Shown one piece after another: positions 14,865 through 18,706 of a DNA stretch of 33,554 nucleotides. The first letter of the stretch is position 1; the number at the start of each line of letters is the position of its first letter. The notes beneath the pieces were generated by a model, which was given only the letters and a program-made list of their open reading frames with translations, searched no databases and had not been told where the DNA came from. Origin of the DNA: a virus (Duplodnaviria; Heunggongvirae; Uroviricota; Caudoviricetes); IMG/VR virus record IMGVR_UViG_2648501235_000001, positions 1-33,554 of that record; one strand, given 5' to 3'. The position numbers and the translations under genes were made by a program.

Positions 14865-15049
14865 ACGCCACAATTCAAACGATACCAGAGCTTCTTATCC
14901 AGACACGAGGTAATCAGACCGAAGTGGCAAGGATGCTTTCCTGCGCAAGAGGAACAGTGCTCAAGTACAACCGAGACAGCAAAGGTGAGCGTCACGTAAT
15001 AGTTAACGGCGTCCTGATGGTAACGCCAGGCAAAAAGGGAAGACGATGA
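14861..15049 (+). CDS. ninH: NinH
   Basis: ...TIPELLIQTRGNQTEVARMLSCARGTVLKYNRDSKGERHVIVNGVLMV parallels lambda NinH (...GNQTEVARRLKCSRGTVRKY...). Confidence 0.75.
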   Translation: MNATIQTIPELLIQTRGNQTEVARMLSCARGTVLKYNRDSKGERHVIVNGVLMVTPGKKGRR

Positions 15050-15669
15050 GACTCGAAAGCGTAGCTAAATTTCATTCGCCAAAAAGCCCGATGATGAGCG
15101 ACTCACCACGGGCCACGGCTTCTGACTCTCTTTCCGGTACTGATGTGATGGCTGCTATGGGGATGGCGCAATCACAAGCCGGATTCGGAATGGCTGCATT
15201 CTACGGTAAGCACGAACTCAGCCAGAACGACAAACAAAAGGCTATCAACTATCTGATGCAATTTGCACACAAGGTATCGGGGAAATACCGTGGCGTGGCA
15301 AAGCTTGAAGGAAATACTAAGGCAAAGGTACTGCAAGTGCTCGCAACATTCGCTTATGCGGATTATTGCCGTAGTGCCGCTACGCCGGGCGCAAGATGCA
15401 GAGATTGCCACGGTACAGGCCGTGCGGTTGATATAGCCAAAACAGAGCAGTGGGGGATAGTTGCTGAGAAAGAGTGCGGAAGATGTAAAGGCGTCGGTTA
15501 TTCAAGAATGCCAGCAAGCGCCGCATATCGCGCTGTGACGATGCTAATCCCAAACCTTACCCAACCCACCTGGTCACGCACTGTTAAGCCGCTGTATGAC
15601 GCTCTGGTTGTGCAATGCCACAAGGAAGAGTCAATCGCAGACAACATTTTGAATGCGATCACACGTTAG
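15046..15669 (+). CDS. Q: Late-gene antiterminator Q, lambda type
   Basis: 207 aa MRLESVAKFHSPKSPMMSDSPRATASDSLSG...CRDCHGTGRAVD...CGRCKGVGYSRMP..., near-identical to lambda Q as recalled. Confidence 0.9.
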   Translation: MRLESVAKFHSPKSPMMSDSPRATASDSLSGTDVMAAMGMAQSQAGFGMAAFYGKHELSQNDKQKAINYLMQFAHKVSGKYRGVAKLEGNTKAKVLQVLATFAYADYCRSAATPGARCRDCHGTGRAVDIAKTEQWGIVAEKECGRCKGVGYSRMPASAAYRAVTMLIPNLTQPTWSRTVKPLYDALVVQCHKEESIADNILNAITR

Positions 15670-15711
15670 CGCCATGATTGCCACGGATGGCAACATATTA
15701 ACGGCATAATA

Positions 15712-15765
15712 TTGACTTTTTGAATAACTTTGGGGAAACTTGACACCAATAATGGGCGTTTTTTA
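15712..15765 (+). promoter_or_regulatory. Late promoter pR' with qut site
   Basis: TTGACTTTTTGAATAACTTTGGGGAAACTTGACACCAATAATGGG parallels lambda pR' TTGACTTATTGAATAAAATTGGGTAAATTTGACTCAACGATGGG; similarity to lambda ends shortly after the initial transcribed region. Confidence 0.6.
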
Positions 15766-15947
15766 CATGTCATTGATGAGTCTCAATAACCTGCCGCCGA
15801 GTAGTTTTTATGCTCTGAATTGTATTTGTGTAGTAAACATGCTGACTGCAATGTAATAGAGTTTTTTAGCCTGTAACCTCTTGACGGCATTGAATTGCTT
15901 TTGTTATGAGTTGTAAGCCAATGTTATCATCTTGTATTGGGGTGGTT

Positions 15948-16664
15948 ATGAAGGATGGTGCGCTGCTCAGGAGTTCTTCACTTTTTATTGCCTACATGGG
16001 ATGCCTTGGATGGGGGAGTGCTTATTTCTATGGATGGGGTACTTCTTTTTACTACGGCTTCCCATGGTGGATTGTAGGTGCAGGTGTTGATGATGTTGCC
16101 AGAAGTTTATTTTTTGCAGTTATCGTCATTGCTATATTTCTTATCGGTTGGGGTATTGGTGTTGTATTCTTTTTCGCAGTGAAAAGAAAACATTCTATGC
16201 AAGAGCTAAATGTATTTCGCCTTTATTTTGCTGTGGAATTATTGTTTATGCCGGCAATTATTGAGTTTTCTATATTGAGACAGAAGATTCAGGTACCTCT
16301 TTTGCTACTGTCAGCAGCGATTGCGCTGGCGGTTACAATTTCGATAAGATCTTATGGGCGATTTTTATCGGTATCATGCTTCTATGATAAGCCATTTATA
16401 AAAAAACATTTTTTTGAGATTGTGATGATTGCTTTTGTGGCATATTTCTGGCTTTTTTCATTTCTGACAGGATATTACAAACCGCAGTTTAAGAAAGAAT
16501 ATGAAATGATTAATTATAATGATGGTTGGTATTATGTTCTTGCTCGTTATGATAATTGTCTGGTTTTGTCTACTTCTTTCAATGCAGGTAGTAAAAGGTT
16601 TGTCATTTATCAATCAGCACAAGATAAGAATCTTCAGGTTGATATTGTAAGGACCAGAATTTAA
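15948..16664 (+). CDS. Uncharacterised multi-pass (about 5 TM) inner-membrane protein; AT-rich cargo gene between pR' and the lysis cassette
   Basis: Open frame 15906-16664. Start is ambiguous: ATGs at 15906, 15921 and 15948, only the last with a weak G-rich SD. Hydrophobic segments LFFAVIVIAIFLIGWGIGVVFFFAV, LYFAVELLFMPAIIEFSIL, VPLLLLSAAIALAVTISI, FFEIVMIAFVAYFWLFSFL. About 27% GC in a sampled stretch. Confidence 0.55.
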   Translation: MKDGALLRSSSLFIAYMGCLGWGSAYFYGWGTSFYYGFPWWIVGAGVDDVARSLFFAVIVIAIFLIGWGIGVVFFFAVKRKHSMQELNVFRLYFAVELLFMPAIIEFSILRQKIQVPLLLLSAAIALAVTISIRSYGRFLSVSCFYDKPFIKKHFFEIVMIAFVAYFWLFSFLTGYYKPQFKKEYEMINYNDGWYYVLARYDNCLVLSTSFNAGSKRFVIYQSAQDKNLQVDIVRTRI

Positions 16665-16797
16665 TTGGCTGCATAAATAATATTTTAAGTTGCAAGTTGG
16701 CTATTCGTAGGAATAGAACCTTAGGCATGCTGAATGCGTTTTCTGAACATTGTTTTATAAACTGTGTCTGCTTGCTGTTGTGATCCTGCTTTTAGTG

Positions 16798-16908
16798 ATG
16801 GTGATGATGGATTTCACCAGCAGGATAATGTTGGTACTGACTGATGGCGCTCTGGTCTGCGGCATTGTGGTATTGCTGTGGCCGATGATGAAAGAACAGA
16901 ATGAATAA
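16798..16908 (+). CDS. Possible small hydrophobic peptide (36 aa; alternative ATG at 16828 with AGGA SD gives 26 aa)
   Basis: MVMMDFTSRIMLVLTDGALVCGIVVLLWPMMKEQNE: one TM-like segment with a charged C-terminus. Below ORF-track cutoff; no homology evidence. Confidence 0.2.
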   Translation: MVMMDFTSRIMLVLTDGALVCGIVVLLWPMMKEQNE

Positions 16909-17094
16909 TCCTTGACTTTTTTGTTTACTGTTTATTAAAAAATCAACCGCATGGTGAATCCTCCTTGGAGGGGCTAAATGATCGAGTTTTAAGGGCACGT
17001 AGCGAGTTCTGTTTGATCATTGCAGAACTTAGCGGGAGGCGCCATGCGTACATCACTAATGTTATTTCCTTCTATCATTTTCCTTGTGAGTTCT

Positions 17095-17121
17095 GGCTGC
17101 GCATGGCGCGGCCTTTTTTTT
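17095..17121 (+). terminator. Strong intrinsic terminator (plus strand) within the Q-S spacer
   Basis: 8-bp stem GGCTGCGC/GCGCGGCC (one G-U pair) with 3-nt loop (17095-17113) followed by TTTTTTTT (17114-17121). Confidence 0.6.
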
Positions 17122-17466
17122 ATGACCTGCCACTGGCAGATGGTCATCCTGTGATTTGATTCCGGTTCCGGCTTTTTAACTCTGTTCCTGTACACGGGAG
17201 AAATTCTATGTCGATTAATCGTTATGATATTGGTTACAAGAAGTACCACGTATTGTGTTGAGATAGAAAGCCTGGTGCCAGAGGTAAATGCAGCAGCATA
17301 ATAAAAAAGAGCCAGCGCAGAAGAGAACGGGTAAAAGAGTCTGCGCTGGCGTGGGGATATTCCCCGTGGAGAAATGATATGTAACACACATCGGGAACCT
17401 TTCTATATAAACATTATCATTATTGTCAATCATAACAGTCAGGTATTATGACGTTTATGCATCAGG

Positions 17467-17497
17467 GCCATCAGGAATTAACTGGTGGCTTTTTATT
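17467..17497 (+). terminator. Candidate intrinsic terminator 35 nt upstream of the holin start
   Basis: Stem GCCATCAG/CTGGTGGC (17467-17474/17482-17489, one G-U) with 7-nt loop, followed by TTTTTATT. Confidence 0.4.
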
Positions 17498-17529
17498 GTT
17501 GTCAGCTTCCGGATAACGGGAGACGGGGT

Positions 17530-17745
17530 ATGTACCAGATGGAAAAAATCACAACAGGTGTGTCATACACCACGTCAGCGGTGGGGACGGGATACTGGCT
17601 ACTGCAGTTGCTGGACAAAGTCTCCCCATCCCAGTGGGTGGCAATAGGCGTATTGGGTAGCCTGGTGTTTGGCTTGCTGACGTATCTGACAAACCTTTAT
17701 TTCAAGATTAAAGAAGATAAGCGTAAGGCTGCGAGAGGTGAATAA
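17530..17745 (+). CDS. S: Class II holin (pinholin), phage 21 S type, with dual-start motif
   Basis: [71 protein letters not shown] parallels phage 21 S as recalled; ATGs at 17530 and 17539; GGAG SD. The six-frame ORF start at 17485 is GTG. Confidence 0.85.
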
Positions 17746-18242
17746 TGTCGCCATCATTACGCAGGGCTGTTGCTGCTGCTATTGGTGGTGGGGCTGTTGC
17801 CATAGCGTCTGTGCTCATCACTGGTCCGAGTGGTGACGATGGCCTGGAAGGTGTCAGCTACATACCATACGAAGATATCGTTGGCGTATGGACTGTATGT
17901 CACGGACACACCGGAAAAGACATCATTCCCGGTAAAACGTATACCGAAGCAGAATGCAAAGCCCTCCTGAATAAAGACCTTGCCATGGTCGCCAGACAAA
18001 TTAACCCGTACATCAAAGTCGATATACCGGAAACAACGCGCGGCGCTCTTTACTCGCTCGTTTACAACGTGGGCGCTGGTAATTTCAGAACATCGACGCT
18101 TCTTCGCAAAATAAACCAGGGTGATATCAAAGGCGCATGTGACCAGCTACGTCGCTGGACATACGCTGGCGGTAAGCAATGGAAAGGGCTGATGACCCGT
18201 CGTGATATTGAGCGTGAAGTCTGTTTGTGGGGGCAGCAATGA
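17745..18242 (+). CDS. R: SAR endolysin (signal-anchor-release lysozyme), phage 21 R type
   Basis: N-terminal SAR domain [22 protein letters not shown] followed by a lysozyme domain ([23 protein letters not shown]...); start overlaps the holin stop (TAATG). Confidence 0.9.
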
Positions 18243-18706
18243 GCAGGGTAACCGCGATTATCTCCGCTCTGGTTATTTGCATCATCCTCTGCCTGTCATG
18301 GGCTGTTAATCATTACCGTGATAACGCCATCGCCTACAAAGAGCAGCGTGATAAAAAAGTCAGTGAGCTGAAGCAGGCGACCGCCACCATTACTGACATG
18401 CAGCAACGCCAGCGTGCTGCTGATGTACTCGATGCTAAATACACGAAGGAGTTGGCTGATGCGAAAGCTGAAAATGATGCTCTTCGGCGCAAGCTTGATA
18501 ATGGTGGTCGGGTGCTCGTCAAAGGAAAATGCTCTGTGCCATCCTCAGCCGAAACCTCCAGCGCCTCCGGCATGGGCAATGATGCCACCGTCGAACTCTC
18601 TCCAGTTGCTGGACGAAACGTTCTCGGTATCCGGGACGGAATTATCCGTGACCAAACAGCACTGAGAACGCTTCAGGAGTACATCAGGACGCAATGCCTG
18701 AAATAA
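18239..18706 (+). CDS. Rz: Spanin inner-membrane subunit Rz (i-spanin)
   Basis: [34 protein letters not shown]... (N-terminal TM plus coiled coil) parallels lambda Rz; ATG overlaps the R stop (ATGA). Confidence 0.85.
18459..18665 (+). CDS. Rz1: Spanin outer-membrane lipoprotein subunit Rz1 (o-spanin), embedded in the +1 frame of Rz
   Basis: [44 protein letters not shown]...: lipobox VVGC and Pro-rich mature region as in lambda Rz1; AAGGAG SD 8 nt upstream. Confidence 0.75.

Follow-up and report, generated by a model that had tools for sequence, protein, structure and literature searches.

The apparently gene-poor spacer at positions 16665-17529 of this 33,554-nucleotide viral sequence, here called the window, is very probably the moron insertion site of a lambda-like E. 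coli prophage, lying 3' of the antiterminator gene Q and the late promoter pR' and 5' of the lysis cassette. Its elements run in order from a DUF3927/TciB-like gene, through pasD1, an sRNA gene of the plus strand, and an esterase remnant, to a converging minus-strand sRNA gene, EcOnc32, and a terminator hairpin that precedes the holin gene S. This explanation of the whole locus, in which we have considerable confidence, draws on EPEC and EHEC sequence that is identical or 99.5% identical to that of the window. It should be emphasized that the locus is mostly known biology, as PasD1, the DUF3927 gene and the converging-sRNA layout are already established; the only new points are the link of EcOnc32 to the sRNA Esr41 and its likely target, entC. 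An earlier note, made from the letters of this DNA alone, had read the spacer as regulatory RNA or tiny membrane peptides rather than conventional proteins. That interpretation is partly supported, in that two Hfq-binding sRNAs and one small membrane protein are encoded here, while the second peptide that it proposed falls away. The five sequence features on which it was built all exist, two of them 8-11 bases from where they had been placed.

The antiterminator gene Q (15046-15669; Pfam Antiterm, 188 bits) is directly followed by a lambda-like pR' (TTGACT, 17 nt, GAAACT; 15713-15741), and the spacer ends at S (17530-17745, plus strand), the first gene of the lysis cassette, which encodes a class II pinholin of the phage 21 type with a dual start (MYQM...; Pfam Phage_holin_2_1, 112 bits; class II holin according to PGAP). 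Positions 15037-18689 are 99.45% identical to prophage PP4 of EPEC E2348/69, and positions 16123-18023 are 99.47% identical to Sp3 of O157 Sakai, where the Sakai coordinate equals the window coordinate plus 884277. Tree et al. described, for Sp3 and other prophages, moron sites downstream of pR' that carry converging sRNA pairs. The AsxR/EcOnc27, AgvB and PasA/PasC pairs resemble the window in joining a plus-strand sRNA to a converging minus-strand sRNA in the interval from the moron genes to the lysis cassette; PasA/PasC lie next to the holin gene, and the minus-strand gene of the converging pairs abuts the stop codon of the esterase gene, as it does here. AsxR and AgvB, however, are anti-sRNAs of 51-60 nt with a different conserved 3' part, whereas the minus-strand partner in the window is of the Esr41 type. 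PasA and PasC take up the corresponding minus-strand slot in other prophages, but a PasA or PasC identity for the minus-strand RNA was rejected, as neither aligns to the window on either strand. An Rfam scan of the PasA/PasC loci of 434, PP2 and PP5 at E <=0.05 returned no Esr41 match, and a covariance model of EcOnc32-type sequences gave only weak matches at the PasA/PasC loci (E 0.036 to 0.4).

The protein-coding component of the spacer is a 52-residue hydrophobic protein with a TTG start (16750-16908, plus strand). The earlier note had recognized a 36-residue hydrophobic peptide at 16798-16908; the frame is indeed coding but the start was misplaced, the peptide being an internal-ATG truncation that comprises the C-terminal 36 residues of the longer product. 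The protein matches Pfam PF13064 (DUF3927) at 53 bits against a cutoff of 25, with residues 7-50 covering profile positions 7-49 of 53, and PHROG phrog_1470 'TciB-like' with E 2.5e-17; PGAP assigns it to the DUF3927 family, and its counterpart in the record of phage 434 is called TciB. Like other members of this group it is small, has two hydrophobic segments and is encoded by a prophage moron, and it matches nearly the full profile. Homologues with 50-73% amino acid identity, in which similarity begins at residue 4, adjoin STnc100-family RNAs in other phage contigs. The full phrog_1470 name reads 'TciB-like inhibition of cell division or resistance to colicin' and should be taken as no more than an annotation label. 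A literature search on tciA, tciB and DUF3927 returned nothing useful on the protein, the results dealing mainly with Trypanosoma 'TcIa/TcIb'.

Downstream of this gene, positions 16949-17121 of the plus strand are the PasD1 sRNA gene (EcOnc13 of O157 Sakai), with 173 of 173 bases identical to NC_011601 1060260-1060432; it is predicted to be expressed and Hfq-associated, as has been shown for the identical EPEC sequence and for Sakai EcOnc13. PasD1 and PasD2 of EPEC E2348/69 are the known counterparts (Pearl Mizrahi et al. 2021; Zhu, Shabalina and Storz 2026 preprint), and published work on PasD1 of that strain includes a Northern blot, RIL-seq and Hfq dependence. The window copy shows no sequence difference from it and has the same seed, terminator and gene context (Q, membrane protein, DUF3927, pasD1, holin, lysozyme); within its lambdoid prophage it is close to Q, with the holin/lysozyme operon immediately downstream. 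PasD2 differs from the window RNA at four positions and lies upstream of an intact esterase gene. The complement of the PasD1 Northern probe, CCTTGTGAGTTCTGGCTGCGCATG, matches exactly at 17082-17105, and the Sakai EcOnc13 Hfq peak maps to 17055-17105; Tree et al. (2014) list for EcOnc13 an Hfq CRAC peak and a Northern band of ~187 nt. According to published RIL-seq motif analysis, PasD1 pairs with the motif CUCACA of its target mRNAs; the seed, UGUGAG, lies just upstream of the terminator, at 17085-17090 in the window. The Rho-independent terminator called by the scan (17095-17113 plus U8 to 17121) is the strong terminator that the earlier note had correctly located. PasD1 apparently has its own promoter, a candidate sigma-70 element with -35 TTGACT (16912-16917), an 18-nt spacer and -10 TAAAAA (16936-16941) that would start the RNA at G 16949. 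It was missed by the consensus scan because the last -10 base is not T; its spacing agrees with the RNA-seq 5' end of PasD1, and a TTAAAA-like box 7-8 nt upstream of GCATGGTG is kept across the PasD/STnc100 family. The idea that this promoter is the late promoter pR' was discarded, since the lambda-like pR' sits right after Q. The fold of PasD1 is more stable than expected by chance (z = -2.07; 3 of 200 shuffles as stable).

PasD1 is a diverged member of the STnc100 family, a group of prophage sRNAs from Salmonella and E. coli. Its match to RF02076 spans the full length but, at 37.7 bits (E 4.5e-6), falls short of the gathering score, which is 47. At gathering thresholds the whole window gave no Rfam match, and both STnc100 and Esr41 appeared in E-value mode only. 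Helices P1 (16949-16956 with 17040-17047), P2 (about 16960-16973) and P3 (17004-17011 with 17023-17030) are backed by covariation: among 49 distinct 5' domains, 98.2% of cells are paired, against about 40% in slid controls, and four pairs of P3 are changed on both sides. The closing helix of STnc100, GCAUGGUG/CACCAUGC, is kept as P1 with one U-G pair, as are P2 and P3, whereas the P4 hairpin (CCGGG/CCCGG) has been lost from PasD1 and its central insert is shorter. The 3' seed module also differs from that of STnc100, such modules being freely swapped in the family, in which 61 distinct versions occur. PasD1 and STnc100 nevertheless share the same syntenic slot after the DUF3927 gene, as in phage Evi, where this site is occupied by a canonical STnc100 (119.9 bits). 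A preprint places PasD2 in the most abundant CsrA-bound RNA pair. The PasD/STnc100 RNAs may be modular, in which case the covarying 5' domain with its invariant GGGAG motif would be a protein-binding scaffold, joined to freely exchanged 3' cassettes of seed and terminator that may act through Hfq.

Facing PasD1 on the minus strand is EcOnc32 (17302-17406), which we identify as an Esr41-like, Hfq-binding sRNA from the Rfam match, its fold and the Sakai and EPEC data. The RNA comprises a 5' hairpin (17392-17376), the single-stranded seed AUUUCUCCA (17375-17367), a second hairpin (17365-17353) and a terminator stem (17350-17311) with its U-tract (17310-17303). The perfect 11-bp stem reported in the earlier note at 17322-17361 exists, at 17311-17321/17340-17350, and since its T-run lies on the minus strand the stem terminates minus-strand transcription. 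The fold is more stable than expected by chance (z = -8.05; 0 of 200 shuffles as stable). In Sakai the Hfq CRAC peak of EcOnc32 (901574-901662, minus strand) corresponds to window positions 17297-17385, in sequence of 99.5% identity. Table S2 of Tree et al. (2014) flags a Rho-independent terminator and gives a Northern band of ~112 nt, the EcOnc32 AUC being the second-highest among the orphan-site rows listed from that table; neither a homologue nor a function is given there for EcOnc32. In EPEC the RIL-seq region 1060613-1060672 (minus strand), always recorded as RNA2, corresponds to 17302-17361, and in published tables some 808,000 of the 18.2 million Hfq fragments come from it; in the hfq deletion its abundance falls by 2.9 log2 units. 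Of the 5426 complete E. coli genomes, about 600 contain EcOnc32. Its 5' end would lie either at about 17392-17395, according to Esr41 homology (~91 nt), or at about 17406, which fits the ~112-nt Northern band. Two promoter candidates were found, one with TTGACA (17429-17424) and a weak -10 TATAGA (17407-17402), and the other, called by the scan, with CTGACT (17442-17437), an 18-nt spacer and GATAAT (17418-17413).

It could be argued that part of this signal belongs to proteins rather than RNAs. On the plus strand the earlier note had drawn attention to a 7-bp inverted repeat, AGTTCTG/CAGAACT, a GGGAGG and an ATG, and a 36-residue frame (17044-17154) that resembled a lipoprotein signal peptide or a type I toxin. 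Such a peptide could be translated from the GGGAGG and ATG with the hairpins serving regulation, or PasD1 could be a dual-function RNA. The GGGAGG (17034-17039) does lie 5 nt upstream of the ATG at 17044, both at the positions claimed, and the EDL933 copy named STnc100_1 (902843), a candidate PasD1 homologue, has a ribosome-footprint/transcript ratio of 2.16, above that of most sRNAs, from which some ribosome association of an STnc100-type RNA is conceivable. All of these elements, however, are parts of PasD1. The inverted repeat, which lies at 17005-17011/17023-17029 and not at 17013-17037, is helix P3; the ATG and its flanking bases belong to the conserved closing helix, P1, of which they are the 3' arm; the supposed Shine-Dalgarno sequence aligns with the GGGAG motif of the structured 5' domain, which in canonical members makes up the top of helix P4 and its loop; and the terminator noted inside the frame is that of the sRNA. 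The stop codon of the frame (17152-17154) lies beyond position 17121, where the 173-nt RNA has its 3' end, and in PasD2 a 1-nt deletion shifts the frame and cuts it to 14 codons. Over the 61 distinct 3' modules the frames read from the AUG are unrelated, with stops from codon 3 to beyond codon 36, and one family member has GUG in place of the AUG. The canonical lipobox is [LVI][ASTVI][GAS]C, with L, V or I at position -3; the frame has S-S-G-C before and at the cysteine, with none of these at -3, and no Pfam match. Nor does any toxin family in Pfam match either peptide, no antisense RNA gene overlaps 16750-16908, and, unlike the type I toxin-antitoxin layout, both RNAs of the spacer are trans-acting Hfq sRNAs. 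We therefore do not regard the frame as a gene, and consider a peptide product of this kind extremely unlikely. The assertion that the plus strand holds no frame of at least 60 residues is not strictly true, as a 64-residue TTG-start frame occupies 16965-17159; it runs through the PasD1 terminator, is probably spurious and was rejected as a gene.

A similar argument can be made for the minus strand, where the RNA assigned to EcOnc32 might be the mRNA of a 132-residue protein (16989-17387; E2348C_1013, ECs_0817, WP_033816266). Both PGAP and the original annotations place a hypothetical protein here, and it is under this spurious CDS, E2348C_1013, that the published EPEC tables count the RNA. 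The Hfq-bound reads, however, cover only the first ~90 nt and end at the Rho-independent terminator inside the 'CDS', which agrees poorly with an mRNA, as does the short Northern band. The frame is antisense to PasD1, has no Pfam family match above threshold, and crosses a deletion junction, being an interrupted pseudogene in the undeleted PP2. Of the readings weighed here this is the one to which we give least credence; the 132-residue and 72-residue minus-strand frames were rejected as genes, as the earlier note had judged, the published 'expression' of the former being that of the sRNA. The junction itself belongs to a scar (17208-17304, plus strand) of a SASA/NanS-p (YjhS-like) sialate esterase gene, recognized by comparison with phage 434 and EPEC prophage PP2, in both of which an intact 1851-nt esterase gene lies between PasD and the holin gene. 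What remains of the gene is its 5' end, with the ribosome-binding site, the ATG and ~8 codons (17208-17232), joined in a different frame to its final ~65 nt, the closing bases of which are TAATAA (17299-17304); homology to 434 and PP2 stops at 17232/17233, MSINRYDIG of the scar resembles the esterase N-terminus MSIKHYDVV, and ...VEIESLVPEVNAAA resembles its C-terminus ...VEIESLMLEINAPAA. A deletion of ~1.75 kb clearly occurred, and the counts of promoter-like and terminator-like sites in the region do not exceed those of shuffled sequence, so that the spacer might be viewed as decaying junk whose stems and frames are leftovers without present function. This is very improbable. The deletion spared the two sRNA genes as well as their terminators, and in EPEC and EHEC that have the same deleted arrangement the two RNAs belong to the abundant Hfq ligands. 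The DUF3927 frame is kept at the protein level in diverged phages. Moreover, 563 of the 5426 complete E. coli genomes contain the entire spacer at a coverage of at least 80%, in most cases with an identity of at least 99%.

Returning to EcOnc32 as an sRNA, comparison of the sequences points to a distant paralogue of Esr41 (RF02676, EcOnc14), which is encoded on the SpLE1 island of O157. The Rfam Esr41 model matches 17390-17301 with 32.3 bits (E 1.2e-3), well below its gathering score of 102. Detection also works in the other direction, as a covariance model built from five EcOnc32-type sequences, with Esr41 left out, finds Esr41 (L007 1499-1572) at 30.4 bits, with a rough E value of 3.6e-5. 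The minimum-free-energy fold has one and the same layout of three hairpins in the window RNA, in four variants and in Esr41. In EcOnc32 as in Esr41, a hairpin at the 5' end is followed by the single-stranded seed UUUCUCCA, a small GGGG/CCCC hairpin and the terminator; the seed reads AUUUCUCCA in EcOnc32 and AUUUUCUCCA in Esr41. The ATTGACAA box upstream of EcOnc32 aligns with the -35 box of canonical Esr41. In contrast, the 5' hairpins are entirely different in sequence, with compensated pairing, and the terminator loop of EcOnc32 is 18 nt long, a further difference from Esr41. The genes also differ in location, EcOnc32 lying in a lambdoid prophage between the esterase remnant and the holin gene and Esr41 on SpLE1, although both occur in the same O157 genome.

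Esr41 represses the iron genes chuA, cirA and bfr by pairing with their ribosome-binding sites, and affects fliC and the LEE. EcOnc32 would pair through its single-stranded, CU-rich seed, an anti-Shine-Dalgarno sequence, and its best-supported predicted target is the ribosome-binding site of entC, a gene of enterobactin synthesis; this prediction combines the RIL-seq chimeras, the duplex prediction and the analogy with Esr41. In EPEC, the chimeras of EcOnc32 number 263 for the entC 5' UTR (p 4e-165), 537 for the rpoS 5' region and 28 for the dnaK 5' UTR. Only seed-restricted duplex prediction was informative: the seed is predicted to form a 12-bp duplex with the entC Shine-Dalgarno region (-16.3 kcal/mol, a value reached by 2 of 300 shuffles), pairing with dnaK is marginal, and the rpoS and nleB partners show no seed pairing in this test. 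When full-length RNAduplex was run without accessibility, each of the four RIL-seq partners yielded long, non-specific duplexes that were matched by those of shuffles. The top RIL-seq partner of EcOnc32, entC, is an iron-uptake gene, the EcOnc32 targets being predicted ones. EcOnc32 may block the ribosome-binding site of entC and in this way let the prophage control enterobactin synthesis. The joint proposal that EcOnc32 is an unrecognised Esr41 paralogue possibly controlling enterobactin, and that the PasD/STnc100 RNAs have a modular design, is tentative, and we judge its chances of holding in full to be rather less than even.

At the downstream end of the spacer the earlier note had proposed a plus-strand promoter. 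Its TTGTCA (17423-17428), 15-base spacer and TATTAT (17444-17449) are present, but the consensus scan does not call a promoter here, and a transcript from it would stop after just ~40 nt, at the hairpin that precedes S; the candidate was rejected. The TTGTCA overlaps the minus-strand -35 box TTGACA of EcOnc32, which is conserved with the Esr41 promoter, and is considered the mirror image of that box. The hairpin, which had been overlooked, is a terminator-like structure of 11 pairs on the plus strand at 17464-17492, followed by a T-run that reaches 17497; the holin gene starts about 35 nt farther downstream. An equivalent hairpin lies upstream of S in phage 434/PP2, where it is an annotated terminator carrying a compensatory A-U to G-C change, and in BP-4795. 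In EPEC the holin gene is nearly silent, with a baseMean of 5.4 against 2064 and 8652 for the two RNAs. In a lysogen, as judged from the identical or near-identical EPEC and EHEC sequence, both sRNAs would be abundant and Hfq-bound while the lysis genes are silent. The hairpin at 17464-17497 probably insulates the lysis genes from the lysogen-expressed genes upstream, and together with the PasD1 terminator it would keep lysogen transcription out of the lysis genes; on induction, Q-modified polymerase would be expected to read through both terminators.

The 'gene-poor' Q-to-S spacer of lambdoid prophages is thus packed with regulatory cargo. Automatic pipelines mis-annotate it, placing hypothetical proteins of 132 and 64 residues over two sRNA genes, neither of which attains its Rfam gathering score. 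EcOnc32 in particular is a very abundant Hfq ligand in two pathotypes, EPEC and EHEC, that has been hidden under a spurious CDS annotation, and its proposed link to Esr41 and entC provides a directly testable hypothesis on how a prophage may control the iron acquisition of its host.

The spacer between the membrane-protein moron and holin S (16665-17529) carries two converging sRNA genes, both already published, a small-protein gene of a known family and the scar of an esterase deletion. An earlier note, made from the sequence alone, had proposed that the region encodes regulatory RNAs or tiny membrane peptides rather than conventional proteins. All five sequence features that it described are present, with corrections to some; its observation is partly confirmed and its interpretation partly supported. 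Simple promoter and terminator counts in the region did not exceed shuffled expectation. Fold stability, by contrast with shuffles, was elevated for both the minus-strand RNA (z = -8.05) and the plus-strand RNA PasD1 (z = -2.07).

The window is a lambda-like E. coli prophage. The antiterminator gene Q (15046-15669; Pfam Antiterm, 188 bits) is followed, directly 3' of its stop codon, by a plus-strand lambda-like late promoter pR' (15713-15741; TTGACT, the 17 nt TTTTGAATAACTTTGGG, GAAACT), a region very similar to lambda pR'. With pR' directly after Q, the two sRNA genes, like the moron genes, fall within the Q-antiterminated late transcription unit. The plus-strand moron at 15906-16664 encodes a multi-pass membrane protein of 252 aa (PGAP 'STM1630 family protein') that matches phrog_1521 (511 bits; function label unknown) and had no match in a Pfam search. 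On the other side of the spacer stands the gene for a phage 21-type pinholin S (17530-17745, plus strand), followed by the SAR endolysin and Rz. The S N-terminus, MYQM (17530-17541), is a dual start (Met1 and Met4), typical of the holin/antiholin pair in phage 21-type pinholins; in phage 434 and EPEC prophage PP2 the annotated homologues are 207 nt long, 9 nt less than the 216 nt here. EPEC E2348/69 prophage PP4 is 99.45% identical to window 15037-18689 and the O157:H7 Sakai prophage Sp3 is 99.47% identical to 16123-18023. Of 5426 complete E. coli genomes, 563 contain the whole spacer at a coverage of at least 80%. The layout of the spacer is one that Tree et al. have described for Sp3 and other prophages, with two sRNA genes converging at the moron site 3' of pR'.

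The plus-strand RNA is PasD1. When the E2348/69 coordinates in Table S6 of Pearl Mizrahi et al. 2021 were taken to the genome sequence, window 16949-17121 was identical to PasD1 (1060260-1060432) at 173 of 173 positions, and both the PasD1 Northern probe and the seed UGUGAG (17085-17090) matched exactly. PasD1 and PasD2 are Northern-validated, Hfq-associated RNAs with targets in the core genome and among virulence genes (Pearl Mizrahi et al. 2021). The Hfq CRAC peak of EcOnc13, the Sakai homologue, falls on window 17055-17105, and Table S2 of Tree et al. 2014 gives its Northern band as ~187 nt. Rfam STnc100 matches over its full length (16919-17124; 37.7 bits, E 4.5e-6, below the gathering score of 47), and PasD sRNAs have been described as diverged relatives of STnc100 (Zhu, Shabalina and Storz, 2026 preprint). 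A plausible promoter of its own lies at 16912-16941 on the plus strand (TTGACT at 16912-16917, 18 nt, TAAAAA at 16936-16941; +1 at 16949), just 3' of the DUF3927 stop codon, and members of the family conserve a TTAAAA-like box.

It had been suggested that an ATG at 17044, behind a strong Shine-Dalgarno sequence (SD), opens a lipoprotein-like ORF with a terminator inside it. Scanning IMG/VR with the conserved 5' motif yielded 49 distinct 5' domains, for which RNAalifold returned P1 (GCAUGGUG with CACCAUGC) as the closing helix, along with P2, a junction helix, P3 and P4. Paired cells make up 98.2%, as opposed to ~40% with the partners slid, and four pairs of P3 have changed on both sides. The inverted repeat that the note placed 8-11 bases away is real, lies at 17005-17011/17023-17029 and is P3; ATG 17044 sits within the 3' arm of P1 (17040-17047). 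The GGGAGG read as the SD aligns with the family's conserved GGGAG motif, which in canonical members forms the top of P4 and its loop, P4 being lost in PasD1. The proposed ORF is not conserved: frames from the equivalent AUG are unrelated across 61 distinct 3' modules, a frameshift in PasD2 leaves 14 codons, and the 3' end of PasD1 (17121) precedes the stop codon. The second peptide is RNA structure of PasD1. Ribosome-footprint to transcript ratios of 0 to 3.2 are recorded for eleven STnc100 copies in EDL933, among them 2.16 for the copy at 902843 (159 nt, plus strand), a candidate PasD1 homologue (PMC5331693); this signal could reflect protection by Hfq or another RNP rather than translation.

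The STnc100/PasD family (IMG/VR contigs L008-L127, alignment A1) is modular: a strongly conserved, covarying 5' domain of ~100-130 nt is joined at its 3' side to seed-and-terminator cassettes, of which there are at least 61 different ones. Some IMG/VR contigs hold two tandem copies a few hundred bases apart. Many canonical STnc100 genes conserve an inverted repeat around a TTGAC box (CAGACGGTTGACAGTTGTCTG) ~30-45 nt 5' of the RNA start (for example within the 50 nt before GCATGGTG in L009 and L029), which could be an operator; PasD1 lacks this repeat.

The other proposed peptide fared differently. The 36-aa hydrophobic ORF exists only as an internal-ATG truncation of a plus-strand 52-aa ORF (16750-16908) that matches Pfam DUF3927 (53 bits; cutoff 25) and phrog_1470 ('TciB-like'), and is labelled DUF3927 by PGAP in E. 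coli genomes and TciB in the phage 434 record. Homologues with 50-73% amino-acid identity adjoin STnc100-family RNAs in other phage contigs, and their similarity starts at residue 4, upstream of the truncated start. Because of these family matches and the homology from residue 4, the ORF is a genuine small-protein gene of a known family.

The perfect 11-bp stem also exists, again 8-11 bases from its proposed place (17311-17321/17340-17350), and is the terminator of the converging minus-strand sRNA. This RNA is EcOnc32, located in Sp3 at Sakai 901574-901662 (minus strand; Tree et al. 2014, Table S2), a peak that corresponds to window 17297-17385. The Table S2 entry gives a predicted terminator and a Northern band of ~112 nt and names neither homologue nor function; its Hfq signal is the second-highest among those orphan-site rows of the table that were compared. 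The gene occurs, nearly always identical, in 603 of 5426 complete genomes, and O157 carries it alongside canonical Esr41. Its 5' end may lie at ~17392, from Esr41 homology, or at ~17406, from a promoter CTGACT-18-GATAAT (17442-17413); the latter fits the Northern band better. The plus-strand promoter proposed nearby, TTGTCA-N15-TATTAT, overlaps a minus-strand TTGACA box and was not called by our scan.

Kinship with Esr41 was weak in Rfam (17390-17301, minus strand; 32.3 bits, E 1.2e-3, gathering score 102). In the fold of EcOnc32 a 5' hairpin leads into single-stranded AUUUCUCCA, after which come a GGGG/CCCC hairpin and the terminator. Four sequence variants and canonical Esr41 have this layout too, and the changes in the 5' hairpin and in the terminator are compensated; the EcOnc32 -35 box, ATTGACAA, aligns with that of Esr41. 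A covariance model built exclusively from prophage variants recovered canonical Esr41 (30.4 bits, E 3.6e-5) and a copy in phage BP-4795 (L249 68-140, minus strand; 26.1 bits, E 3.3e-4) directly 3' of the stop codon of the esterase gene yjhS, the slot of EcOnc32, PasA and PasC; in PP2 and 434 it matched the corresponding position more weakly (E 0.036). This slot seems to host related, exchangeable sRNA genes with a common terminator. Esr41-type Rfam hits are often near PasD (2026 preprint).

In the EPEC tables EcOnc32 is hidden under the CDS name E2348C_1013, which is always the second RNA in chimeras (1060613-1060672, minus strand; window 17302-17361). It accounts for ~808,000 of 18.2 million fragments, more than SroC or ArcZ, and falls 2.9 log2 units in an hfq deletion. 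Four partners are significant: the entC 5'UTR (263 chimeras, p 4e-165), the rpoS 5' region (537), the dnaK 5'UTR (28) and an nleB region (72). In a seed-restricted duplex test AUCAUUUCUCCAC paired with the entC SD region over 12 bp (-16.3 kcal/mol; 2 of 300 shuffles attained this) and the dnaK SD paired more weakly; no seed pairing was found for rpoS or nleB. Esr41 uses pairing of this kind to repress chuA, cirA and bfr. By this analogy and from the entC pairing, it is a reasonable but unproven inference that EcOnc32 represses entC.

The spacer also records a deletion. The match of the window to phage 434, phage 2B8 and PP2 runs as far as 17232, where these three continue with a 1851-nt SASA/NanS-p esterase gene absent here. 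Plus-strand remnants of that gene persist on both sides of the junction: RBS, ATG and first codons at 17208-17232 (MSINRYDIG against MSIKHYDVV) and the last ~65 nt, in another frame, at 17233-17304 (...VEIESLVPEVNAAA*). A PGAP-annotated 132-aa minus-strand ORF crosses this junction and is an interrupted pseudogene in undeleted PP2, and is therefore an artefact, bearing out its earlier dismissal as noise. Minus-strand annotations at 16989-17387 include the hypothetical proteins WP_033816266, ECs_0817 and E2348C_1013. The plus strand was said to lack ORFs of 60 aa or more, which overlooked a TTG-start ORF of 64 aa (16965-17159), which the phage 434 record lists as a 'putative membrane protein'. 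Both annotated proteins lie across the sRNA genes and their terminators and are probably not real; it is because of the minus-strand annotation that the EPEC RIL-seq tables enter an abundant sRNA as a CDS.

Missing from the earlier list was a plus-strand terminator-like hairpin (17464-17492, T-run to 17497). It keeps its place 5' of S in BP-4795 and 434/PP2, with a compensatory A-U to G-C change, and is annotated as a terminator in the 434 record. In the EPEC lysogen there is next to no expression of the holin or Q (baseMean 5.4 and 6.0), while the membrane-protein moron (147), EcOnc32 (2064) and PasD1 (8652) are all expressed. In the lysogen the lysis genes would be insulated by this hairpin and by the PasD1 terminator, both of which Q-modified polymerase would read through.

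The locus is ordinary and already known in the field, since the converging layout (Tree et al.), PasD1, the PasD-STnc100 link (2026 preprint) and DUF3927 were all published or curated. This analysis adds the explicit statement that the E2348C_1013 signal is EcOnc32, an Esr41 paralogue, together with its entC seed pairing, the esterase deletion scar and the demonstration that the second peptide is RNA structure. According to a CsrA RIL-seq preprint, the most abundant pair bound by CsrA includes PasD2. Read alongside the conservation of the 5' domain and the exchange of 3' modules, this points, speculatively, to a possible modular, two-chaperone design of PasD/STnc100 RNAs.
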